DNA of 64,000 nt from the NCBI GenBank assembly GCA_964344965.1, contig CAYFPJ010000002.1, positions 1,068-65,067 of the forward strand, written 5' to 3'. A program made the translations under genes and the position numbers. Positions within the stretch are counted from its first letter, which is position 1. Each line of letters begins with the position of its first letter. Shown here piece after piece: positions 4,200 to 47,976 of the stretch. The DNA comes from an uncultured Gammaproteobacteria bacterium. Lineage in GTDB: Bacteria; Patescibacteriota; Patescibacteriia; Magasanikbacterales; UBA922. The notes below the pieces were generated by a model. That model saw only the letters and a program-made list of their open reading frames with translations, had not been told where the DNA came from and made no database searches.

Positions 4200-4348
4200 A
4201 ATAAAAGTAAATTTGGTTTAAGTAAGACTTCATCGGGCCATCCCCGCAGCAAGCTGCGGGGTATTGGCAGAAAATCTTATTTCAACCAATGTTAGTTTTC
4301 ACTTTTTCGATGCAAGCATCGAGGAATAAAACCGCTTAAAGATTAAAA
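4200..4348 (+). repeat. 149-nt structured interspersed repeat, copy A
   Basis: Near-identical to the copies at 18577, 20057, 41992 and 47828. Begins AATAAAAGTAAATTTGG and ends CCGCTTAAAGATTAAAA. Contains the hairpins CCCCGCAG-CAAG-CTGCGGGG and CGATG-CAAG-CATCG. Confidence 0.9.
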
Positions 4349-11754: not shown

Positions 11755-13434
11755 ATGTGTATGTCTGAATTTGAACAAATAGTAAAATCTATCATTACCC
11801 AAAATCCTTCCACCAAAGGTGAGCTTGATGATATGAGGAGAAAAATCTGTGGTGAATTGCGTATCAATCAACCGTCTAACCGTAAACTTCTGCAAGCTTA
11901 CCAGAATTTGGTCAAAAAGAAAAGCATTGAGAAAAATCAAAAAATAGAAAGATTACTAAGGAAAGCCGATATTCGCACCCTCTCTGGTGTTGCTGTGATC
12001 ACCTCACTCATCAAACCATACAGCTGTCCAGGACAATGTGTCTATTGCCCAACTGAAGTAAGGATGCCCAAGAGCTATATCGCCACCGAGCCAGCCGCTG
12101 CTCGGGCTCTGTCTCTTGAGTTTAGTCCTTATGAACAAATGCAAAGGAGAATCAAGATGCTGGAACTCAATGGTCATCCAGTCGAAAAAATTGAATACAT
12201 TATCAAAGGTGGTACTTGGAATGCTTATCCGATCAAATATCAATACTGGTTCATCATGGAGTCATTCAAGGCTTGTAATAATTTGTCGCGGAGAAAAAAA
12301 ATAGCAGTGACAAATGAAGTGGATTGGAAAACTAGGCCACTAGCAGATGTGCAAGCAGAACTAGAAAAAGAGCAAGAATACAATGACAAAAAAGCTAGAT
12401 ACAAAATCATCGGTCTAACTCTCGAGACTAGGCCAGATGCCATCAGGCCGAAAACCATCATGCACATGCGTCTGCAAGGCTGTACCAGAATTGAACTTGG
12501 TCTCCAGGCCCCTGATGACAAAATTCTTGAGCTGATCAAACGAGGTCATACTGTCCAGCAGTTCAAAGATGCTATTCTCCTCCTCCGCCAAGCTGGCTTC
12601 AAAGTGGACCTCCACTTCATGCCCGATCTACCAGGGACCACAGCGAAGCATGATGTAGAAATGTATGAGACCATTTTCTCTGATCCTGGATTGAAGCCAG
12701 ATATGATCAAGATCTATCCCTGCACTGTGATTAAATCGGCTGAACTATATGGCTGGCTACAAGATGGTCGCTACAAGCCGTATAGTGGAAAGGAATTATT
12801 CTGGGCGTTATTGGAAATGAAAAAATTGACCCCACGATATTGTCGAATCTCTAGATTGATCCGTGACATCCCAAGTGATGTCATCGAGGCTGGTAATGCT
12901 GTCACAAATCTGCGTGAATATTTGGCGCAAGAAATGAAGAAGAATGGTTGGGTCTGTCAATGTCTTCGCTGCCGAGAAGTGGGACATCAAATAAAGAACA
13001 AAGAACAACTAACAACTAACAAAATTAAATTGTTTGTCGACGAATATGAAACTATTGGTGGGACGGAATATTTCTTGAGTTTTGAAGATGAAAAACGTCA
13101 GGTTGTTTTTGCTTTTTTGCGACTCCGACTGCCAGATAAGCAAAACAAAAATCAAAGCATTTCAAGCCTTTTAGGCCTTTCCAGCTTTTCAAGCCTTTCA
13201 TTCATTCGTGAACTCCACACCTACGGTCAACTCGTCAACCTGGGCAAGGAAAATAAAAAAGCTTCTCAACACAAAGGCATGGGTAAGAAGCTAGTAGAGA
13301 AGGCTGAAGAAATAGCCAAAAAAAATGGATTTGATAGTATGGCAGTTATTTCTGGAGTGGGAGTGAGAGGATACTATAGAAAATTAGGTTATAGAAAAAA
13401 AGGGACTTATATGACAAAAAATCTACTTGCTTGA
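11755..13434 (+). CDS. elp3: Elp3-family radical-SAM / GNAT tRNA-modification enzyme
   Basis: Radical-SAM CPGQCVYCP cluster, full-length similarity to Elp3, and a C-terminal GNAT domain that carries a low-complexity insert (SISSLLGLSSFSSLSF). Confidence 0.9.
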   Translation: MCMSEFEQIVKSIITQNPSTKGELDDMRRKICGELRINQPSNRKLLQAYQNLVKKKSIEKNQKIERLLRKADIRTLSGVAVITSLIKPYSCPGQCVYCPTEVRMPKSYIATEPAAARALSLEFSPYEQMQRRIKMLELNGHPVEKIEYIIKGGTWNAYPIKYQYWFIMESFKACNNLSRRKKIAVTNEVDWKTRPLADVQAELEKEQEYNDKKARYKIIGLTLETRPDAIRPKTIMHMRLQGCTRIELGLQAPDDKILELIKRGHTVQQFKDAILLLRQAGFKVDLHFMPDLPGTTAKHDVEMYETIFSDPGLKPDMIKIYPCTVIKSAELYGWLQDGRYKPYSGKELFWALLEMKKLTPRYCRISRLIRDIPSDVIEAGNAVTNLREYLAQEMKKNGWVCQCLRCREVGHQIKNKEQLTTNKIKLFVDEYETIGGTEYFLSFEDEKRQVVFAFLRLRLPDKQNKNQSISSLLGLSSFSSLSFIRELHTYGQLVNLGKENKKASQHKGMGKKLVEKAEEIAKKNGFDSMAVISGVGVRGYYRKLGYRKKGTYMTKNLLA

Positions 13435-14022
13435 AGATTTCTCTACAACTTTTTCTTTCAATCTTACAGTTGCCACAGGCCTTATCCAAGTAAACTCATC
13501 TAATACATCTGATGATAATTCATAGTTACGGATTGTCTCCTGTTTCAACATATTTGCAATTAATACACAAAGTTCTGATACAGGAACGCCAGACTCTGTG
13601 GCAATGTCATCAAGCCTACTTCCCCCGTATGCTCGTATCTCCAACTCTCTCAAAAATTCCGGAGCATACCATACATATCCTTTTGCACGGTCCTCTTGCT
13701 CAATTTCATACACATAATCATCCCAGAAATCAGGGCGTTCACTTAGCATAGTTTTCGCGATAGGTAAAAGTTTTTTGTCACGATCCATCTCCCATTCACG
13801 TGCAATAGTATTCAAACGAAACCCTCGTCGTTTTATATCTAGCACGTGTCTTATGTCTGTCTGTAATTCAGGTGTGAGCACCTCTCTTATTTTACGATGC
13901 TGATCCGATCTCTTTACAAGTAGACCATCTGTGCCTAATTCATTGCGTCTTCTCCTACGGACAACCTCATCTATAATTGGCTGTAATCCAAAATCTGATA
14001 CAGTATATCCTTCCTCTATCAA
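13423..14022 (-). CDS. hypothetical protein with a possible C-terminal HTH
   Basis: ORF overlaps the upstream gene by 4 nt, suggesting an operon. The segment RLDDIATESGVPVSELCVLIANML is HTH-like. No family assignment. Confidence 0.35.
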   Translation of the reverse strand: MIEEGYTVSDFGLQPIIDEVVRRRRRNELGTDGLLVKRSDQHRKIREVLTPELQTDIRHVLDIKRRGFRLNTIAREWEMDRDKKLLPIAKTMLSERPDFWDDYVYEIEQEDRAKGYVWYAPEFLRELEIRAYGGSRLDDIATESGVPVSELCVLIANMLKQETIRNYELSSDVLDEFTWIRPVATVRLKEKVVEKSSSK

Positions 14023-15260
14023 CTGATTTTAAATGAATGTCTTGTGGGAAGTCTCTCTCTGTCAGCTGTTTCAGGAGGAATAGTGAGTTCATTCCGAATT
14101 TCTGCAACAATCATTTCACAAAGCTTGCGAGTATAGCGATAGTACTCTTTTTCTCCACCGACGGCAAAACTATCCATATCAAATTTTTCATTTGGCTGTT
14201 TGTCTATTGCATGCCGATCTATAATATCTGCGGCTATCTCACCTACTCGCCTTGGAGTAACACGACTCTTTCCAATAGCTGCCAACTCGTCTGAAAACAT
14301 ATCTGACAGATAAGCACTCATGCCACGTTCAGTTAGTGGAAAATCATATAGTAGCTGTTGCTCTTCTTTCCATCTTTCTTCCGCAGTATTGATGACCCAT
14401 TCAGATAAAGGTCTTCGTACCTTATCCCCTCTTTTGTCAGACTTTATATCTCCTGTTCTATCTGGATATTTTTCCTTATATTCTTCCACCATTTCTGGAA
14501 TACGTTTGTAAAGATTAGGATACAGACCTACAGCCTCTGGTCTATAAATCAAGTCAGCACACTCAATTGCAATAGAATCAATCCTTCTTTGCACAAAACC
14601 TCGCAATTTTTTTACACTTAGCCATTCAGGAATTTCTTCTTCTCTCACCAATCCTTCAATACCCTCTTGGACATTCACATCATGAGGTTTATCAAGAGTG
14701 TCGTCCAATGCCTGCTTCCATTCTTTCTCATCTTCACCATCCAGACGAGTCGCATATTCTGATTCAACCAGAGCATCAAGATCCTTTGTAGACATCTTCG
14801 CCAACTGGTACATTTTTTCAGCATTATCTACTCCATAAACACAGTATGTAGCCCTACCAGGAAGATCAGAAACAAATACTAGAACACCTTCACTCGAAAG
14901 CATATACATTGTATAGCCGCGCCCTTTTGTTCGACTTTTTGTATAGATACTCTCTATTTTTTGATGCTCTATTTCTCTCCGACGAAAAACTTTTTCTATC
15001 CACCCATTCCTAGGAAGTGGGGGTTGATCTAGTACAGCTGCTGCTTTTGGTTTTCTTTCACCACGAATTTTTCGCATTTCCACCCCTGAACGCAAAATAG
15101 GAAACCACACCATTCCATTCTTTTGGTGCAATTCGGATACTTCCTCTAGCGTATTTTGTACAGATTGTTCCATGTCTCCTAGAATCTTTACTCTTTCTTC
15201 TAGAAGCCTGCGAGCCTCTTGTTCCAAATCTGGACCACCTGATTCTCCTGCTATATACAC
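14019..15260 (-). CDS. hypothetical protein, paralog of the 20149..21429 ORF
   Basis: Shares the block YTMYMLSSEGVLVFVSDLPGRATYCVYGV with DLFVIPDKGVSIFVSDLHGEGTHIVFV of the paralog. Confidence 0.4.
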   Translation of the reverse strand: MYIAGESGGPDLEQEARRLLEERVKILGDMEQSVQNTLEEVSELHQKNGMVWFPILRSGVEMRKIRGERKPKAAAVLDQPPLPRNGWIEKVFRRREIEHQKIESIYTKSRTKGRGYTMYMLSSEGVLVFVSDLPGRATYCVYGVDNAEKMYQLAKMSTKDLDALVESEYATRLDGEDEKEWKQALDDTLDKPHDVNVQEGIEGLVREEEIPEWLSVKKLRGFVQRRIDSIAIECADLIYRPEAVGLYPNLYKRIPEMVEEYKEKYPDRTGDIKSDKRGDKVRRPLSEWVINTAEERWKEEQQLLYDFPLTERGMSAYLSDMFSDELAAIGKSRVTPRRVGEIAADIIDRHAIDKQPNEKFDMDSFAVGGEKEYYRYTRKLCEMIVAEIRNELTIPPETADRERLPTRHSFKIS

Positions 15261-15307
15261 AATTATTTAAATATTATATTCAAGAATGACTTTCACCGCA
15301 AAATTAC

Positions 15308-16216
15308 TTAACCAAAAGATAAAATGACTACTCCCACCACCATAATACCAATCGCGGATAGTTTCAGCAAGATATTTCTTTTGTCCACTTCTTCCTTTAT
15401 AATACCTGGCGCGAATTTGGTCAGAAGAACTGTCATTGCAAAGACCATTATAGGCTGGGAACCTTCTAGTGAACTTACCAAAGATACAGGCGCCATAGAC
15501 AGAGCTTTAATTTTCAAAAAAATACCAAGCTTACCAATCATATTAATGACAACAATGATTGCAAGCACTTTACAAGTAAAAAAAGATTTTTTATCTTTAC
15601 GAAAATCATGTCTGAATTTTTTGGAAAAAAATAATAACAAACTAAGACAGACAGGAAATATAGTAAAGAAGACAAACATAACCTCAAACGGTAGAGAAAA
15701 TCGGACAGAGACATAGCGAATAATAACATGGTAAGCTGCAAAAAACATTGTAGCTACCAACATCAACAAGAAGGATCTGGAAAAAGTAAATCTACCAAAA
15801 CTTTTGACATGAAGAGAGGCAACCAATCCACCAACAAATAATATGAGGAAAGACAGTAATTGGACGCTATTCAATTCCTCACCAATAAAAACCCAACCAC
15901 CAAACAAAGTAAAGACAGGAACAAAACTCCAAAAAACACTAAGTCTACTAGCTTCCTCAATTTGTAAAGCTCTTACATAGAGGAGCACTCCTGTAAAAAA
16001 AGCAACAGAGCCAATGGCTATAAAAAATAGCTCTAATACAGTAGGAACGAAAAAATCTATAAAAGGAATGACTACTAATACGAGCGCTCCGGCAATAATA
16101 CCAACCACAGCATATACATACGGATTCTTGAACTTCTTATCAACCATAAACTTCTCACCAACATTGGTGAGAGCCCAAAAGAAATGTGTGAGGAGGGCGT
16201 ATGATATCCAGGACAT
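15308..16216 (-). CDS. EamA-family (DMT superfamily) transporter
   Basis: 10-TM hydrophobic profile with duplicated EamA-like halves. Confidence 0.65.
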   Translation of the reverse strand: MSWISYALLTHFFWALTNVGEKFMVDKKFKNPYVYAVVGIIAGALVLVVIPFIDFFVPTVLELFFIAIGSVAFFTGVLLYVRALQIEEASRLSVFWSFVPVFTLFGGWVFIGEELNSVQLLSFLILFVGGLVASLHVKSFGRFTFSRSFLLMLVATMFFAAYHVIIRYVSVRFSLPFEVMFVFFTIFPVCLSLLLFFSKKFRHDFRKDKKSFFTCKVLAIIVVINMIGKLGIFLKIKALSMAPVSLVSSLEGSQPIMVFAMTVLLTKFAPGIIKEEVDKRNILLKLSAIGIMVVGVVILSFG

Positions 16217-16245
16217 AAATATTGTTGCATGTTAAATGCTATGTG

Positions 16246-16752
16246 TTAAATGCTATGTGTTACGTGTTTTGTGTCTCGTGAATACTTACATCCACAATAA
16301 TTTTGTCGATAAATTCCTTTTTCCTTCACCATCTTTCTTACCTTTTCTTGTCTACCACCCTTTTTCCAGTCTTCTTTTAAAAAACCAATATTATATTTTT
16401 CCGCCAACCTCCTACAAATCCCCCCGATAATTTCCATTTTTTTGTTTCGTCCGCTAGTGAGAGTGGTAGAGAAAATATCAAAATTATTTTCTTTAGCATA
16501 CTGAGCAGATTGATTGAGACGCAGATAAAAACACTTTGGACAACGAAGCCCTCCCTCTGGCTGATCTTCAAAACCTTTTATAGCCTCATCCCACCTATTC
16601 ACATCATAATCAGCATCGACCATCTTCACTCCCCACTCATCACAAATACGTACCACTTCTTTTTTTCTTTTCAGATATTCTTCTATTGGATGAATGTTGG
16701 GATTATAAAAATAAACCGTCAGATCATACTGATCTTTTAGGTCTCGTGCCAA
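16246..16752 (-). CDS. queH: epoxyqueuosine reductase QueH (DUF208), lacking the N-terminal CCAPC segment
   Basis: The protein aligns with T. maritima QueH from VTVFFFNPNIHP onward (ours TVYFYNPNIHP). The GGLRCPKC, DIFSTTL and QNYCGC motifs are present. The ORF begins at a TTG, and in-frame stop codons lie upstream. Confidence 0.7.
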   Translation of the reverse strand: MARDLKDQYDLTVYFYNPNIHPIEEYLKRKKEVVRICDEWGVKMVDADYDVNRWDEAIKGFEDQPEGGLRCPKCFYLRLNQSAQYAKENNFDIFSTTLTSGRNKKMEIIGGICRRLAEKYNIGFLKEDWKKGGRQEKVRKMVKEKGIYRQNYCGCKYSRDTKHVTHSI

Positions 16753-17752
16753 TGTTATATGGCTTGTATTTATCTATTTTTATCCTCATCATCCTGTCAA
16801 TTTCATCATCCAGAGAAGAAGAATAATGTCTTCCATTCATTTTGTTATTACGATTGAGAAGCCACTTCATAGAGGAAGTTTCTCCATCGTCCGTTAGCGG
16901 GCTTTCCTGGTGTGCTTTTTGGGCAAATCTCTTTGCCCAGGTGCGTAAAGTCATAAACGGAATTTCCTTATTATATTCTGTTTTAGCGATTTTATGATAT
17001 TTTTTGGCAATATCTTGCTCACTGCGCCATTCCGCAGATGCCACTTCCTTTCCCATAGCAAGTATAATTATTTCTTTTGTCAATCTTGGACCACAATACC
17101 ATGCCATGCCTCTATTTTTATTACAATAGTACCTACCATACTCTTCAGAGAGAATACTATCTCTTTCTATTATTTCCTTTATCAATGAATGTATTGCCTG
17201 TTTATCATGAACTACTGATTTTTCTAATGGTTTCAAAAATCTAGAAATACCTACCAATAATCTAAATCCTTCTGGAGGTGAATCCTTATACTTCTCCATC
17301 TTATGTCCGACATCTTTAGGTAAATTTGCAAATACTTCTGCAAAGTCAGACCCATCATAAATGTCACCTGCCATTCTTTTAGATTGTCGTTCCAACAATT
17401 TTTTTATTGCAATAGCGTCTTTTTCACCAAACCAATCAACAAACAAACCAAAAAATCGTGGCCTCAAAATACCATCAGCAGTACACACTCTTGGATAAGA
17501 TTTCAAAATTTCTGCAAATTCAGGAACGCTAGACTGTCCAATTTCCGGATCGTTTTCAACAATCCTATCTACTAAACTAAAAATTTCAAAATCGGTCCTA
17601 ATTCCCTCCTCATTTAGACCCATGCCCTCCTCAACCTTATCTATATCAAAACCATCCAATCTTTTTTTATCTTCGTGTAGCGCATATACCGCACCCCTGT
17701 AAATATTTTCTGCTTCTGTGGCCATAAAATATTTTTTTAAAAATCTAAGCAA
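16724..17752 (-). CDS. hypothetical protein
   Basis: 342-aa ORF with no recognisable motif; overlaps queH by 29 nt. Confidence 0.35.
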   Translation of the reverse strand: MLRFLKKYFMATEAENIYRGAVYALHEDKKRLDGFDIDKVEEGMGLNEEGIRTDFEIFSLVDRIVENDPEIGQSSVPEFAEILKSYPRVCTADGILRPRFFGLFVDWFGEKDAIAIKKLLERQSKRMAGDIYDGSDFAEVFANLPKDVGHKMEKYKDSPPEGFRLLVGISRFLKPLEKSVVHDKQAIHSLIKEIIERDSILSEEYGRYYCNKNRGMAWYCGPRLTKEIIILAMGKEVASAEWRSEQDIAKKYHKIAKTEYNKEIPFMTLRTWAKRFAQKAHQESPLTDDGETSSMKWLLNRNNKMNGRHYSSSLDDEIDRMMRIKIDKYKPYNIGTRPKRSV

Positions 17753-17787
17753 ACCCCCACCTTCTCGTTTTTAAATCAAAGGTATGA

Positions 17788-17897
17788 ACCCCAGGGCAAG
17801 CCCTGGACCCTTTTTTCCGAGGCAAGCCTCGGGGAACCTGCCTGCCGGCAGGCAGGTTAAACCAACCCCTCGTCCCGTACCGAGGAACGAGGTCGGG
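17788..17897. repeat. cluster of four consecutive GC-rich hairpins (REP-like palindromes)
   Basis: CCAGGG-CAAG-CCCTGG, CCGAGG-CAAG-CCTCGG, CCTGCCTGCC/GGCAGGCAGG and CCTCGT...ACGAGG. The loops match the CAAG loops of the 149-nt repeat. Confidence 0.7.
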
Positions 17898-17972
17898 ATT
17901 AAAAATTATTCAATCAAGATACCAAAAAAATCTCTAATCATAAGTAAAACAAACCTTTACATATATCAAGAA

Positions 17973-19408
17973 TTAATAAAAATAATTTCTATCTTCTAAC
18001 TCTTCCGGCAAATAATCCTGCTCCACCTCTCCCCCAAAATCTGGATTATACTTATAATCTTTACCATATCCAATTTCCTTCATAAAGTCAGTCGGAGCAT
18101 TCCGGAGATGTAAAGGTACACCAAGATGTGAAGTATTCTTAGCATCTCTGGCCGCCCGACCATAAGCTTTGTAAAGTAAGTTTGATTTGGTCGACTTAGC
18201 ACAGTATACCACAGCCTGAGCAAGGTGGACGGTGCACTCAGGCATGCCGATCTTGTGCACTGCATCATACGCTGCGTTAGCTTGAATCATTGCTTCACTA
18301 TTGGCCATGCCGATATCTTCACAAGCGAAGCGAAGCACTCGTCTAGCCACATATAGCGGATCTGCTCCCCCTTCAAGCATCCGAGCAAGCCAATACAGCG
18401 AAGCATCTGCATCACTTCCCCGCATAGATTTATGCAAAGCTGAGATCAGATTGTAAAACTCCTCACCTTTTTTATCAAAAACTAAGTGAGTACGCTGTAA
18501 TGCTTCTTTTATATCGTCAACTGACAAGATAACGCCACCAGATTCACCCCCCCCCTATGAGGGGGAGTCGATCCCGAATAAAAGTAAATTTGGTTTAAGT
18601 AAGACTTCATCGGGCCATCCCCGCAGCAAGCTGCGGGGTATTGGCAGAAAATCTTATTTCAACCAATGTTAGTTTTCACTTTTTCGATGCAAGCATCGAG
18701 GAATAGAACCGCTTTAGATTCAATCGGGACGGAGGGGGTCTCACTGGAAGTCTTCCCAACTACGGCAAGTTCAATACCATTCAAAGCTACTCTCCCATCT
18801 TCCCCACTCAAACTTGCCAAAAATTCGATAGTCTCATTATCAATCTCGACATTATATTTCCCCAATCCTCTATCCTCATCCTCGAGAGCTTGTCTTATAA
18901 GCAGGACAATATCCTCATCACTAAGACTTTTCAAAATAAAAACTCGTGAACGTGAGAGAAGTGGACGGATGATTTCAAAAGAAGGATTTTCCGTAGTGGC
19001 TCCGATGAGTGTAACCACTCCTCTCTCAACATAAGGCAGTAATGCATCTTGCTGGGCCTTATTCCAACGATGAATCTCATCAATAAAAAGCACTGTCTTC
19101 TTATTTTCATTCTGTAACAATTCTGAAGCTTCCTTGACTGCTTTCATCAAATCTCGCTTACCGCTCTCTACTCCTGACAAAGAGACAAACTCTGAATTAG
19201 TTTGCTCAGCTATAATATTGGCGAGACTAGTCTTTCCTACCCCAGGCGGACCCCAAAAAATGATCGAAGATAATTGATCTTGCTCGACCATGCGTCTGAG
19301 TAATTTGCCTTTCCCAACAATTTCTTCTTGACCTACAAATTCATCAAAATTGCGAGGACGCATGCGGTCTGGGAGTGGTCTATTATTCTGTGGCTTTTTT
19401 TCTTTCAT
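17973..19408 (-). pseudogene. rarA: rarA/mgsA (recombination factor AAA+ ATPase) split into two ORFs (18659..19408 and 17973..18527) by an inserted copy of the 149-nt repeat
   Basis: The N-terminal ORF has the Walker A GPPGVGKTSLA and ends with repeat-encoded LDACIEKVKTNIG*. The C-terminal ORF starts at a TTG with ...FDKKGEEFYNLISALHKSMRGS..., which continues the RarA alignment with no residues missing. Confidence 0.7.
18577..18724 (+). repeat. 149-nt structured repeat, copy B (inside rarA)
   Basis: Identical over ~130 nt to the other copies, with a diverged 3' end. It is preceded by an extra C9-TATGA-G6 hairpin. Confidence 0.9.
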
Positions 19409-19418
19409 GAAAATACCT

Positions 19419-20090
19419 TTATCCTTCAGATTTATCTCTCAAATATCCTTCTATAATGGTGTCAGCTTTGGAGAGATTTATTGCTACCAAAACACGAGGA
19501 GGAGTATTGGATTCTAAATAAATCTGCTCTTCCAATGGAATTTTGTGTCCTTCACCTCCCATCAATCTCTCTTGAGCTTCCTTCAAAATTCTAGACATCG
19601 TTATATAAGTTATACCAGCGTATCTAGAACGGATATATTTAGGGCGAACAAAATTTTTATTATTAATCAAAAGACCAAGAATCGTCATCCGTGCAAGCGC
19701 ATCTTCTGCTAAATCTGGACTAAGATATACCTCTCTCCTCAATCTTTCTTTTGTATTGAACTTTTGTGTAAAATGTCTTGAACCATAATTCCGCTGATCT
19801 CCCTCGGGCTTACTTTTGTTACTTTCTTTCATTCTTGATACATTCTCTGCAATTTTCCTTTTATCTAGACCTGTTTTTCTCTGTATGGTTGTCAGAGACA
19901 AGCCATATCTTCCGTCTTCTGGGGGGTATAATCTTCCATCCTCACCTTCCACAGCTCCCAAAAAAATCAAAAATTGTTTTCGATCTTCTTGAATACGACT
20001 CTCAATCATTTCCAAAACCTTAGGACTATATTTGGCATCATATCTTCTATGAGGAAAATAAAAGTAAATTTGGTTTAAGTAAGACTTCAT
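19419..20090 (-). CDS. hypothetical protein with a possible HTH; the annotated start (MKSYLNQIYFY) is encoded by the repeat, and the true start is probably near 20009
   Basis: The first 11 codons lie inside repeat copy C. The segment LSLTTIQRKTGLDKRKIAENVSRM is HTH-like. Confidence 0.35.
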   Translation of the reverse strand: MKSYLNQIYFYFPHRRYDAKYSPKVLEMIESRIQEDRKQFLIFLGAVEGEDGRLYPPEDGRYGLSLTTIQRKTGLDKRKIAENVSRMKESNKSKPEGDQRNYGSRHFTQKFNTKERLRREVYLSPDLAEDALARMTILGLLINNKNFVRPKYIRSRYAGITYITMSRILKEAQERLMGGEGHKIPLEEQIYLESNTPPRVLVAINLSKADTIIEGYLRDKSEG

Positions 20091-20206
20091 CGGGCCATCC
20101 CCGCAGCAAGCTGCGGGGTATTGGCAGAAAATCTTATTTCAACCAATGTTAGTTTTCACTTTTTCGATGCAAGCATCGAGGAATAAAACCGCTTAAAGAT
20201 TTAAAA
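20057..20206 (+). repeat. 149-nt structured repeat, copy C (150 nt)
   Basis: Matches the other copies. It supplies the last 19 codons (TFKSLSGFIPRCLHRKSEN*) of the upstream ORF. Confidence 0.9.
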
Positions 20207-21429
20207 GTAAGATCCTCATCATTACTCACTCTCCCAACAACTTCCTCTATAAGGGTAGCATAAGGTTGGCCATACTTTAATTTAACATAATTATGCAACT
20301 TCATTTCCGTAAACCATTCATCATCTTTTTGTTTTATTTCCAAAAGTAATTCGACCACTTCTACACTATACAGCATCAAACTACGACCTCCAAGGTATGA
20401 TCCTGGTCGTTTAATCTGCTCATCTCTCATCCCCTCATCTCTAAGTCTATCCACCACACCAAGAAGAGAACTATTTATCCAATATTTAGATTTACCAACA
20501 ACAGCAGCAAGAGATCTATTCTTATCACCATCAATATCACCAATAATATACCAACCACCACCTGGACGCTCCATATTTTTAACAAGTTCAACTTCTGCAG
20601 GAACATCATTAAGTATTCTTTCGATTTCAGCCAGCCAGTCTTCCATGTTTGAAAAAGGAATTATTTCATGAGGATGTGGATATGTTTCAAATGAACGCAT
20701 AGTATACTTATCTGGAGTTTGACCTAGAAAATTCTCTATATCTTCCTCTTCAGTACCTGGATTGACAAAAACAATGTGAGTACCCTCACCGTGTAAATCA
20801 GAGACGAAAATTGACACTCCTTTGTCAGGGATAACAAACAAATCATACAAACCATCATAATCACGCACAGTTGATTCAATTTGTTTTTTTGCTCCACTTG
20901 ATAAATCTTCTTTTGATTTTGTTTTTGCACGCACAGAGACAACACCTAATCTTGTCAATAAAATATCAAGTGCTTCTTTTCTCTTATGAGTTTTCCTTTT
21001 CTTTTCCCTATCTTTCTCTCCTCCTTTACCAATTCCAAGTCTTCCTTCTCCAGTGCTAAGTAAAGGCCTGTCAATATATATTGTGTTCACGGCCCCAGTC
21101 ACAACTTCTCCCTCTGGATCAGTCAATTCTACTTCGTCAGAAGTAGAATTGAAAACTAAAGGAAATTCCTCTGCTAGACTTCTCGCCCGCTTTTCTAGGA
21201 TGCTTTCTATACTATTCATATCCTCAGGAGGAATGCCTAAGATGTCTGCAATATCACCTCTATTAAGTCCAGACTCTGTCAAAGCTTCTAATTCACTTGC
21301 AAGACATCCTCTCCAATATTCTACAGCTGAGATGGGAGCAGTCTCAAGACCAGCTTGCTTACCAGCATGTTCACGTAACTTCTTCACCATTATACGGTCA
21401 GCATGAGGTTCAAGATATTTTTTTGACAT
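20149..21429 (-). CDS. hypothetical protein, paralog of the 14019..15260 ORF; its C-terminal 19 aa are read from the repeat
   Basis: Shares the FVSDL-containing block with its paralog; no family assignment. Confidence 0.4.
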   Translation of the reverse strand: MSKKYLEPHADRIMVKKLREHAGKQAGLETAPISAVEYWRGCLASELEALTESGLNRGDIADILGIPPEDMNSIESILEKRARSLAEEFPLVFNSTSDEVELTDPEGEVVTGAVNTIYIDRPLLSTGEGRLGIGKGGEKDREKKRKTHKRKEALDILLTRLGVVSVRAKTKSKEDLSSGAKKQIESTVRDYDGLYDLFVIPDKGVSIFVSDLHGEGTHIVFVNPGTEEEDIENFLGQTPDKYTMRSFETYPHPHEIIPFSNMEDWLAEIERILNDVPAEVELVKNMERPGGGWYIIGDIDGDKNRSLAAVVGKSKYWINSSLLGVVDRLRDEGMRDEQIKRPGSYLGGRSLMLYSVEVVELLLEIKQKDDEWFTEMKLHNYVKLKYGQPYATLIEEVVGRVSNDEDLTFKSLSGFIPRCLHRKSEN

Positions 21430-21964: not shown

Positions 21965-22345
21965 ATGTCGGGTAAGGAGGGTATTATTTACAAAGAATTA
22001 TCATATGCTGTAAATGGAATACTTTTTAAAGTACAAAACAAACTTGGTACTAAATTCCAAGAAGTTCATTATGTCAGAGCAGTGTGTTCCTTACTTAAAG
22101 AATATAATATTCCTTTTAGGATAGAAGTGCCGTTTAAAGTAACATTCAATGGAGAATTCCTAGGAAAATTTCGAGCAGATATGATTGTTGATAACAAAAT
22201 TTTGATAGAATTCAAGACTGTTCCCCATCTAACTGACCAACATAGACAACAACTGCTACGATATATCAAATCATTAGACTTGAAACTGGGCTTACTAGTC
22301 AACTTTCGCGCCTACCCCCTCCAAATTTGGCGTGTCGTAAATTAA
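21965..22345 (+). CDS. GxxExxY-family protein (PD-(D/E)XK-like)
   Basis: N-terminal GIIYKELSYAVNGILFKV matches the GxxExxY signature. Confidence 0.75.
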   Translation: MSGKEGIIYKELSYAVNGILFKVQNKLGTKFQEVHYVRAVCSLLKEYNIPFRIEVPFKVTFNGEFLGKFRADMIVDNKILIEFKTVPHLTDQHRQQLLRYIKSLDLKLGLLVNFRAYPLQIWRVVN

Positions 22346-41967: not shown

Positions 41968-41991
41968 CGATAGTTACAAATTACTAGTTAA

Positions 41992-42140
41992 AATAAAAGT
42001 AAATTTGGTTTAAGTAAGACTTCATCGGGCCATCCCCGCAGCAAGCTGCGGGGTATTGGCAGAAAATCTTATTTCAACCAATGTTAGTTTTCACTTTTTC
42101 GATGCAAGCATCGAGGAATAAAACCGCTTAAAGATTAAAA
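41992..42140 (+). repeat. 149-nt structured repeat, copy D
   Basis: Full-length match to the other copies; lies between convergent genes. Confidence 0.9.
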
Positions 42141-42178
42141 ATAAAATGCCCAAATTTAAATTGGGAATTTTATTTTTA
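42141..42178. terminator. bidirectional terminator hairpin
   Basis: CCCAAATTTAAATTGGG flanked by A/T runs, between convergent genes. Confidence 0.6.
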
Positions 42179-47259: not shown

Positions 47260-47849
47260 CACAAATTGCTACTTTCATGGATACTGATGCCACTGAACCA
47301 AGTGAGGGTAATATCAGAGAAGGATGGACCTCTGACGCACATTTGCGCAAATTAGAAAGTGTAGTAATGCACGAAAACCACCAAAACCAGACTTTTGCTG
47401 ATATTGCAGAAAATGCTGGAGAAAGAAGTAAAAGCCCTGCTGTAAAAATTCTTCTGAAAATAGGCGGACAAATTAACGGATTGAGGCGCATGACCGATAA
47501 AGAACCGATCAAAGACGAAGTTGACAAACTAATCAGAGAGGCCGCAGAGGAAATTGATCAGCTGGAGGATGGAACTAAAAAAGAACGCCTAGACTCACTG
47601 TTGGATTATAATGCTGGTGAGTGGAATAGAGTTATGGGAAATTATGACCTGGCTGCTGAATTGAAAAAACGCTCTGCAACCAAAGCCGAGACAAGCGGGG
47701 ATAGAGTAGGTGCCTCTATCGGGTATGTCGGTGAAAGTGTTCAGAAAGTGAATGAAGCTTTGGTAAATGGTGACCAAACAGAAATAGCTGCGAATCTAGA
47801 AGAAATGATTAGTCGTTCTGATCATCTAATAAAAGTAAATTTGGTTTAA
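47220..47849 (+). CDS. hypothetical protein (TTG start in the track; the last 6 codons, IKVNLV*, come from the repeat)
   Basis: ORF with higher GC than its neighbours; no motif. Confidence 0.35.
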   Translation: MVIGEIPNHEKLATQIATFMDTDATEPSEGNIREGWTSDAHLRKLESVVMHENHQNQTFADIAENAGERSKSPAVKILLKIGGQINGLRRMTDKEPIKDEVDKLIREAAEEIDQLEDGTKKERLDSLLDYNAGEWNRVMGNYDLAAELKKRSATKAETSGDRVGASIGYVGESVQKVNEALVNGDQTEIAANLEEMISRSDHLIKVNLV

Positions 47850-47976
47850 GTAAGACTTCATCGGGCCATCCCCGCAGCAAGCTGCGGGGTATTGGCAGAA
47901 AATCTTATTTCAACCAATGTTAGTTTTCACTTTTTCGATGCAAGCATCGAGGAATAAAACCGCTTAAAGATTAAAA
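47828..47976 (+). repeat. 149-nt structured repeat, copy E
   Basis: Full-length match; separates two GC-richer ORFs. Confidence 0.9.

Follow-up and report, generated by a model that had tools for sequence, protein, structure and literature searches.

Several proteins of DNA segregation and anchoring, namely pSK1 Par, RacA and RocS, carry a single MerR-type winged helix at the N-terminus; a coiled coil comes next, and then a tail that binds the membrane or a partner. Par and RacA use their MerR-type winged helices to bind centromere-like DNA that is repeated; helix alpha2 occupies the major groove, and the wing contacts the backbone (PMC11500499). The gene family described here, which is represented in a 64,000-nt stretch of contig CAYFPJ010000002.1 (the whole analysed stretch, hereafter the window), has no sequence-level match to these proteins, and differs from them in having 3-8 tandem units placed after, or fused to, other domains. 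It also differs from the MerR regulators and the phage excisionases (HTH_17/Xis): the dimerization coiled coil and the effector domain of MerR proteins are missing from the family, and a tandem array is absent from those families. The layout of a MerR-family regulator (a single N-terminal winged helix-turn-helix, a coiled coil and an effector, with Pfam MerR/MerR_1) was not found, Pfam scores being below threshold. To our knowledge, tandem arrays of MerR-type winged helices have not been described earlier, and literature searches for tandem winged helices in bacteria of the Candidate Phyla Radiation (CPR) and for the project PRJEB17505 found nothing.

Two large open reading frames (ORFs) in the window, designated as A1 and A2, are each trailed closely by an ORF of about 200 codons, designated as B1 and B2. 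An ORF check placed all four on the minus strand at the coordinates below. The overlap of A1 and B1 is 4 nt (TTGA), and B2 starts 58 nt past the end of A2. A fifth ORF, C, and a copy of a 149-nt repeat resembling miniature inverted-repeat transposable elements (MITEs) are needed for the same analysis.

A1: 14019..15260, minus strand, 413 aa; coiled-coil-like N-terminal stretch, N-domain at residues ~66-199 (~14664-15065), then ~2 putative divergent winged-helix units at residues ~208-392
Conserved block of A1: residues 116-142 (14835-14915), minus strand; lies within the family N-domain
B1: 13423..14022, minus strand, 199 aa; TTG start, -1 frame relative to A1, 4-nt overlap; read as a continuation of A1 with ~3 putative winged-helix units
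A2: 20149..21429, minus strand, 426 aa; native part 20206..21429 (~residues 1-408), with the N-domain at residues ~39-283 (~20581-21315) and the conserved block at residues 195-221 (20767-20847), then one putative unit at residues ~287-366 and the opening ~42 aa of a putative second one
B2: 19419..20090, minus strand, 223 aa; native part 19419..20056, which appears to start within the C-terminal 'Y-S-P-x-V-L-E-x-I' helix of a unit and to continue with ~2 further putative units
Repeat copy between A2 and B2: 20057..20205, plus strand; 149-nt palindromic, MITE-like element
C: 16724..17752, minus strand, 342 aa; ORFan (an ORF without recognizable homologs) between rarA and queH

The reading preferred here, with a probability of about 0.68, is that neither A1+B1 nor A2+B2 is a two-gene system: the two would be broken and very divergent paralogues of one gene type, which encodes a DNA-binding protein composed of an N-domain and a winged-helix array. 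A first-pass annotation, made from the sequence of the window, had proposed a duplicated two-gene system, possibly toxin-antitoxin (TA)-like or defence-like, in which the two large proteins share a conserved block and the small ones contain helix-turn-helix (HTH)-like segments. The block, the close trailing of the small ORFs and the HTH-like segments are all supported by the analysis below. The paralogy of A1 and A2 stood as well, as distant paralogy; the two-gene pairing did not, as intact relatives are single ORFs and B1 and B2 are unrelated in sequence.

The conserved block of A1 (residues 116-142, YTMYMLSSEGVLVFVSDLPGRATYCVY) and that of A2 (residues 195-221, YDLFVIPDKGVSIFVSDLHGEGTHIVF) share 11 of 27 residues (41%). 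The e-value was 3e-5 in pairwise BLASTP and 0.002 in tblastn against the six-frame translation of the whole window; the ungapped 20-aa window score lay 6.2 standard deviations above shuffled sequences, and gapped Smith-Waterman alignment gave a Gumbel P of ~0.004. Given the many ORF pairs that could be compared, this 27-aa block by itself is only suggestive of homology. An exhaustive phmmer search with A1 against 1.84 billion representative proteins returned one remote match, the 508-aa protein P0004 (e-value 7.7e-5, 26% identity), in which residues 66-218 of A1, including the conserved block, are aligned with residues 100-254. A hidden Markov model (HMM) of the N-domain, derived from five relatives outside the window, was scored on 658 ORFs taken from the window and from related loci. 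It ranked A1 first (e-value 1.1e-8, residues 82-199) and A2 second (e-value 5.2e-6, residues 110-278), and the third-best ORF had an e-value of 0.27. The comparison with hhalign gave consistent results for A1 (93%, e-value 2.8e-7, residues 66-192) and A2 (90%, e-value 1.7e-6, residues 39-283, 213 columns). The homology of A1 and A2 over ~130-240 residues is thus solid because a profile built from outside sequences matches both. The N-domain is characterized by the segments GEGE..G.G, IPR..ELLSEL, Y..f.i...lvfvNDE.gNATFiih and W..i...L, and both A1 and A2 were found homologous to it. As judged from these profiles, A1 and A2 are very distant paralogues with an N-domain of ~130-240 aa from an unnamed family, to which P0004 and proteins from the loci L107, L096, L055 and L137 belong; P0004 is split as well.

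In the relatives the block reads V-N-D-E-x-x-N-A-T-F, while it is VSDLPGRATY in A1 and VSDLHGEGTH in A2; the D and the hydrophobic residues around it are all that is retained. The A2 segment IFVSDLHGEG resembles motif I (D-x-H-G) of calcineurin-like metallophosphoesterases. This likeness was already called superficial in the first-pass annotation, rightly so: there is no Pfam Metallophos match even at e-values up to 1, motifs II-V (GDxxDR, GNH[DE], H, GH) are absent, and the His of motif I (DxH) is missing from A1, which has Pro, and from all relatives. That the large proteins lack known motif sets was borne out more widely, with zero matches for A1, B1, A2, B2 and C in Pfam, PHROGs, PADLOC and NCBIfam. 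These scans identified the neighbors clearly, namely EamA, RarA as two pieces, and QueH, the last of which matched over model positions 17-173 only.

Other searches added little. A word-indexed search of 5.8 billion proteins returned only self-matches for A1, A2 and a 469-aa ORF from a syntenic locus described below. None of A1, A2, C and the 149-nt repeat was found in IMG/VR scans, and sequence searches of the PDB gave nothing meaningful. The 'CAP REPEAT' entry 8vd6 (A3 profile, e-value 6.8e-5) covers only profile positions 9-37 and was judged spurious. A phmmer match of A2 to an ORF from locus L007 was dropped on reading the L007 sequence, which looks ATP-grasp-like. Single-sequence AlphaFold prediction of A1 had a pLDDT (predicted local distance difference test) score of 38 and yielded no usable model.

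Relatives were collected with a degenerate DNA pattern for HPDLV..P[EK]GW over metagenome contigs, and then with an HMM of the repeat. The N-domain family was found only in metagenomic, CPR-like contigs. Its intact members are single ORFs in which the N-domain is followed by repeat units: 798 aa with eight units in L107, 627 aa with five in L096, and 445 aa with three in L055. Partial members are present in L137, L101 and L046. In the relatives with an N-domain, the array always follows in the same ORF, and the units are matched by the unit HMM with e-values from 1e-27 to 1e-119. The unit is ~68 aa long, with the consensus APEGW.T...LA..L....I.kiA..fR..HPEWF..Y....g...EhYHPDLV..I. According to Pfam, the array is also fused to helicases, being C-terminal to a ResIII/DEAD helicase in L125:3916-6474 and N-terminal to an SNF2 helicase plus methyltransferase in L072:7132-11361. 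In PADLOC, the models matched by the helicase parts of these two fusions include PbeA, type IV REase, ZorD and DpdE. No Pfam, NCBIfam, PADLOC or PHROG model was found for the N-domain or the unit, with only sub-threshold HTH, MerR-like and excisionase matches, and the L107 protein had no tblastn match in collections of phages and plasmids. The genes around the relatives are housekeeping genes.

P0004 (GCA_964650255.1; locus L029) ends in a C-terminal half of four plain ~69-aa tandem repeats, and an overlapping 165-aa ORF in the -1 frame resumes the repeats in the middle of a unit. Insertion of one T in a T5 run would join the two into one ORF of ~673 aa. A U_UUU_UUG heptamer made programmed -1 frameshifting worth considering, but the -1 frame is family-like already upstream of the heptamer; a mutation of the T5 run is therefore the more likely cause as far as the sequence tells.

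Some features around the relatives are recorded here as observations. P0004 and its frameshifted tail (L029:5879-12409) have a histidine kinase on one side and a response regulator on the other, and a gene for bAvd, an accessory protein of diversity-generating retroelements, is located ~4 kb upstream. The intact L055 gene is flanked by two paralogous small zinc-ribbon ORFs (L055:2-316 and 1932-2231) with the pattern ..WYCA.CE..G...CPRCGSED.FEDE...

The unit was modeled with AlphaFold2 from repeat 3 of P0004 and an 11-row alignment of units. The model (pLDDT 84) has the order strand, helix, turn, helix, beta-hairpin wing and helix, and its topology is that of a winged helix-turn-helix of the MerR type, with a close structural match. 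Among solved structures, those closest to the model are the domains with which pSK1 Par and RacA bind centromeres (PDB 8csh, 5i41/5i44). The model also resembles the N-terminal domains of P1 ParA and Vibrio ParA2, and many MerR-family, GlnR/TnrA and excisionase domains. Foldseek searches of the unit against PDB and BFVD gave weak winged-helix matches only. Variation among units is concentrated in four places: where helix 1 ends, in the turn, where helix 2 starts, and in the wing. The model thus predicts, with good confidence, that the family unit is a winged helix of the MerR type, which the proteins use in tandem. DNA binding by the array is suggested by the modeled fold and by the fusions to ResIII and SNF2 helicases. 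The array protein would be cytoplasmic and would lay several winged helices along DNA, binding extended or repeated sites; if it acts as Par and RacA do, the recognition helix would enter the major groove and the wing would contact the backbone. The N-domain may provide a second activity or oligomerization.

Because the N-domain of the relatives runs on into the array, the regions after the N-domains of A1 and A2, together with B1 and B2, are read as degenerate copies of the array, a reading that we infer from sequence. The best syntenic relative, L024 (PFPK01000044.1), has a single 469-aa ORF in the slot taken by A1+B1, and this ORF contains three significant units (e-value 1.5e-8 with an HMM built without it). 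Smith-Waterman alignment to the L024 array gave P values of 0.006 for B2 and 0.011 for C. With the first unit HMM, B2 ranked second of 658 with an e-value of only 0.076, and its e-values ranged from 0.08 to 0.28 across HMMs; in another unit-HMM search, C ranked third of 658 with an e-value of 0.043. Across the unit HMMs, B2 and C stood at ranks 2-8 of 658. In an alignment by eye, the putative units of B1, B2, A2 and C line up at the motifs GW, PE-W, Y and Y-S-P-[DE]-L-V. Overall, the unit signals in A1, B1, A2, B2 and C are weak (e-values from 0.04 to above 1). Internal repeats tested with ungapped windows were not significant, nor were HMM and hhalign unit searches of the reconstructed A+B fusions. 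It is possible that C is a member of the winged-helix repeat family that lacks the N-domain.

The joined lengths, ~612 aa for A1+B1 and ~620 aa for A2+B2, are both within the size range of the relatives. The gene is an intact single ORF in L107, L096 and L055, and is split in A1|B1, A2|B2 and P0004. The three splits differ in cause. A1|B1 is separated by a -1 frame change whose sequence is identical in three independent assemblies, and no slippery site is present in the ~10-nt window available; here one gene of ~610 aa would have been cut by a -1 frameshift. At A2|B2, the minus strand of the repeat copy 20057-20205 supplies residues 409-426 of A2 (~17 codons) and its stop codon (ORF end 20149), the 58-nt spacer with the hairpin CCCCGCAGC..GCTGCGGGG and a Shine-Dalgarno (SD)-like GGGGA, and the ATG of B2 (20090) with its residues 1-12 (first ~11 codons). 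Excision of 148, 151 or 154 nt at the repeat turns A2+B2 into one open frame of ~620 aa, in which 'DDEWFTEMKLHNYVKLKYGQPYATLIEEVVGRVSNDEDLT' and 'FPHRRYDAKYSPKVLEMIESRI' form a single unit with a W-to-SP spacing of 48 residues, versus the canonical 48-50 (hand count). The first native Met of B2 lies inside the helix motif of this split unit. Thus, one ~620-aa gene appears to have been cut inside a unit by the repeat, which would have donated the stop to the upstream half and the SD-like sequence and ATG to the downstream half. The third split is the T5-run change favored for P0004. Since three splits have three causes, a designed two-gene architecture is argued against. They fit the tolerance that a modular repeat array would have, or recent decay, queH and rarA being damaged in the same 8 kb.

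The surrounding region contains the following features.

rarA: 17973..19408, minus strand; two out-of-frame pieces, the N part 18659..19408 (AAA+ domain) and the C part 17973..18527 (MgsA_C)
rarA-splitting insertion: 18540..18723, plus strand; consists of the repeat copy 18577-18723 and 37 additional nt, in which a C9 run (18547-18555) and a small hairpin are found
GC-rich hairpin cluster: 17784..17900, no strand assigned; four hairpins upstream of C
queH: 16246..16752, minus strand; without the first ~26 codons, including the HTCCAPC segment

The 149-nt element was first detected as a 138-nt direct repeat (18577/20057) and has five copies in the window (4200-4348, 18577-18723, 20057-20205, 41990-42141 and 47828-47976), which are 97-99% identical and all in one orientation. 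It folds into a long imperfect hairpin (a ~100-nt imperfect palindrome) plus a small hairpin (-48.8 kcal/mol, z -5.2), and Rfam has nothing for the repeat or the surrounding region. Contigs of independent metagenome assemblies break at the repeat copies. We take it to be comparable to bacterial MITEs or palindromic repeats (e.g., Correia, REP/BIME-type). Like bacterial MITEs, it is short, non-coding, near-identical among its copies, strongly self-complementary and mostly intergenic, and it is able to split genes and to give translation signals. Unlike them, it occurs in one orientation, and no common flanking duplication was visible at the copies, nor were clear terminal inverted repeats or a cognate transposase identified (no transposase search was made). 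On its minus strand, the SD-like GGGGA is followed by an ATG and 11 open codons (MKSYLNQIYFY) that exit the end of the element.

The four hairpins at 17784-17900, between C and rarA, have a GC content of 0.63-0.67 in a genome of 38% GC. Two of them have a GCAAGC loop, as do both hairpins inside the 149-nt repeat, and such hairpins occur nowhere else in the window. Of the three repeat copies that the first-pass annotation placed between the modules, the repeats themselves are real, while their number resolves into two 149-nt copies plus the hairpin cluster.

The comparison with L024 supports the view that this segment is variable or accessory. L024 has genes for a methyltransferase (MT) and ELP3, the 469-aa ORFan, EamA, a full-length queH, an intact rarA (429 aa), NUDIX and SHMT, in this order; it lacks C with the hairpin cluster, B2+repeat+A2, and the PDDEXK_3 gene. 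The extra genes of the window are lineage-specific insertions in a conserved housekeeping block, and the segment is accessory. Both damaged genes reported from the first pass were found damaged. The truncated queH matches positions 17-173 of the Pfam QueH model from residue 4, and lacks the HTCCAPC segment that is present in L024 QueH (194 aa). The 3' end of C stands in place of the 5' end of queH, and the enzyme is probably inactive. rarA is split into 18659..19408 and 17973..18527 by the copy 18577-18723 plus the 37 extra nt, and ENA contigs break there. These 37 nt (18540-18576) contain the C9 homopolymer at 18547-18555 and a CCCCC..GGGGG hairpin; the ATG frame of the repeat is one base off the rarA C piece across C9, so that a change in run length could in principle fuse both. 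B2 lies 10 nt upstream of rarA.

Further observations concern the neighboring genes. A small PDDEXK_3 (GxxExxY-type) gene lies at 21965-22345 between NUDIX and SHMT, a position at which L024 has none. The ORF 11755-13434 encodes a radical-SAM protein resembling Elp3 (the ENA gene call matches Pfam Radical_SAM and Radical_SAM_C), presumably with an acetyltransferase part as in the Elp3 family, and is at most 72% identical to its relatives; the organism belongs to the CPR and is close to Candidatus Magasanikbacteria. The gene adjoins a methyltransferase gene across these CPR genomes, and matches are found in Woesearchaeota contigs too. It converges on the variable ORFan slot and overlaps its 3' end, by 12 nt for B1 and by 18 nt for the 469-aa ORF of L024. 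The Elp3-like proteins of L009, L012 and L013-L016 are 46-64% identical to that of the window and always beside a methyltransferase gene, and L012 has the full NUDIX-SHMT-queH-rarA order, as in Magasanikbacteria loci. Several TPA_asm titles of these metagenome-assembled genomes (MAGs), such as 'uncultured Gammaproteobacteria' and 'Saccharibacteria' (L009, L012, L013-L016), seem unreliable.

Several points weigh against the reading of A1+B1 and A2+B2 as broken paralogues of an array gene. A1 and A2 are only ~20% identical to the unnamed family, their units are far more degenerate, both copies are split, and the family-invariant N-D-E..N is replaced by the derived form S-D-L..R/E in both alike. 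The unit HMMs, including those extended with L024 units, and hhalign did not place units in the C-terminal halves of A1 and A2 or in B1 and B2 above real-protein controls; the best e-values are 0.043 for C and 0.08-0.28 for B2, and the hhalign ranks are 11-110 of 357. As these scores are insignificant, the array nature of the window sequences is drawn from gene architecture, weak pairwise scores and the alignment by eye. The alignment under the unit model is small (11 rows). Similarity between B1 and B2 is undetectable (best e-value 0.79). The repeat core is 149 nt, versus the 148, 151 or 154 nt needed for in-frame rejoining, and neither a target-site duplication nor the exact ends of the repeat can be defined. 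Each of the four ORFs is a long open frame (199-426 codons at 38% GC), which would also fit separate maintained genes. Independent ENA contigs all end in the repeat, so that the A2-repeat-B2 adjacency is without a second confirmation.

One alternative takes both copies, and perhaps C, as recently inactivated, functionless pseudogenes in a CPR genome that is being eroded by the MITE-like repeat and by indels, as queH and rarA were. Four disrupted genes within 8 kb (A1|B1, queH, rarA and A2|B2) agree with it, the loss of family-invariant residues from A1 and A2 does too, and the ORFan status of all these proteins is consistent with weak constraint. None of the five ORFs has an internal stop, though, and 199 open codons would arise by chance with a probability of ~1e-6 at ~0.066 stops per codon (our own estimate); therefore, either the inactivation is recent, or the pieces are still under selection. 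Moreover, each downstream piece has a start codon, that of B2 with an SD-like sequence from the repeat. The absence of function is considered unlikely, though it deserves to be kept in mind. Under the preferred reading of broken array genes, both halves may still be produced, given the modularity of arrays and the long open frame that each piece retains.

The original proposal, that A with its N-domain and B with its HTH are co-translated partners of a regulator/effector, TA-like or defence-like module duplicated in an accessory region, is improbable. It would be in keeping with the 4-nt TTGA overlap of A1 and B1, typical of coupled genes, with the intactness and length of every ORF, with the variability of the region relative to L024, and with P0004, which also has a large and a small overlapping ORF in the -1 frame. 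But the small ORF of P0004 begins in the middle of a unit and would be joined to the large one by a single additional T in the T5 run, the A2/B2 boundary is produced by a mobile repeat, intact relatives are single ORFs, and B1 and B2 are not related in sequence; three different causes for three splits speak against it further. A TA-like or defence-like role found no support: PADLOC and Pfam, including toxin and antitoxin families, gave no matches, the neighbors of the relatives are housekeeping genes, and neither a recurrent pair of families nor a defence-island context was seen. The pairing is not conserved across genomes, an outcome named beforehand as speaking against it, and the only other split case, P0004, is a mid-unit frameshift.

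That a 1.5-kb piece with B2 and the rarA N part was misplaced by assembly among the repeat copies, A2 and B2 not being true neighbors, is very improbable: at least five repeat copies lie in 64 kb, an independent ENA assembly of the same project has the piece as its own 1,587-bp contig bounded by the repeat (with B2 called from an internal Met), and the ENA contigs of A2 and the rarA C part also end in repeat copies (k127_55646 inside 20057-20205), but the N and C parts of rarA have to be joined to each other, L024 synteny with rarA beside NUDIX makes A2 (beside NUDIX) and B2 (beside rarA) parsimonious neighbors, and the split unit keeps the canonical spacing over the junction. The A2-B2 adjacency is accepted as the parsimonious arrangement.

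For annotation, the outcome is that the false lead of a duplicated TA or defence pair is removed, and that a short mobile repeat and frameshifts can create what look like 'two-gene modules' in MAGs. In this genome, the 149-nt repeat can serve in practice to mark assembly breaks and gene disruption. A family of uncultivated bacteria is newly defined, with an N-domain and 3-8 tandem MerR-type winged helices, whose array is found in ResIII and SNF2 helicase fusions as well. As a long shot, the arrays might be a modular DNA reader of uncultivated small-genome bacteria, in which each unit would read a short site and each array long or repeated targets, with the 149-nt repeats, the GCAAGC hairpins and centromere-like sites as candidates. 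Such a reader might serve a Par/RacA-like system that organizes chromosomes or controls repeats, the array being reused to target helicases and methyltransferases, and the N-domain might be a new effector or oligomerization fold. If it is true that the arrays read long DNA targets, the family would have a bearing on chromosome organization in CPR bacteria.

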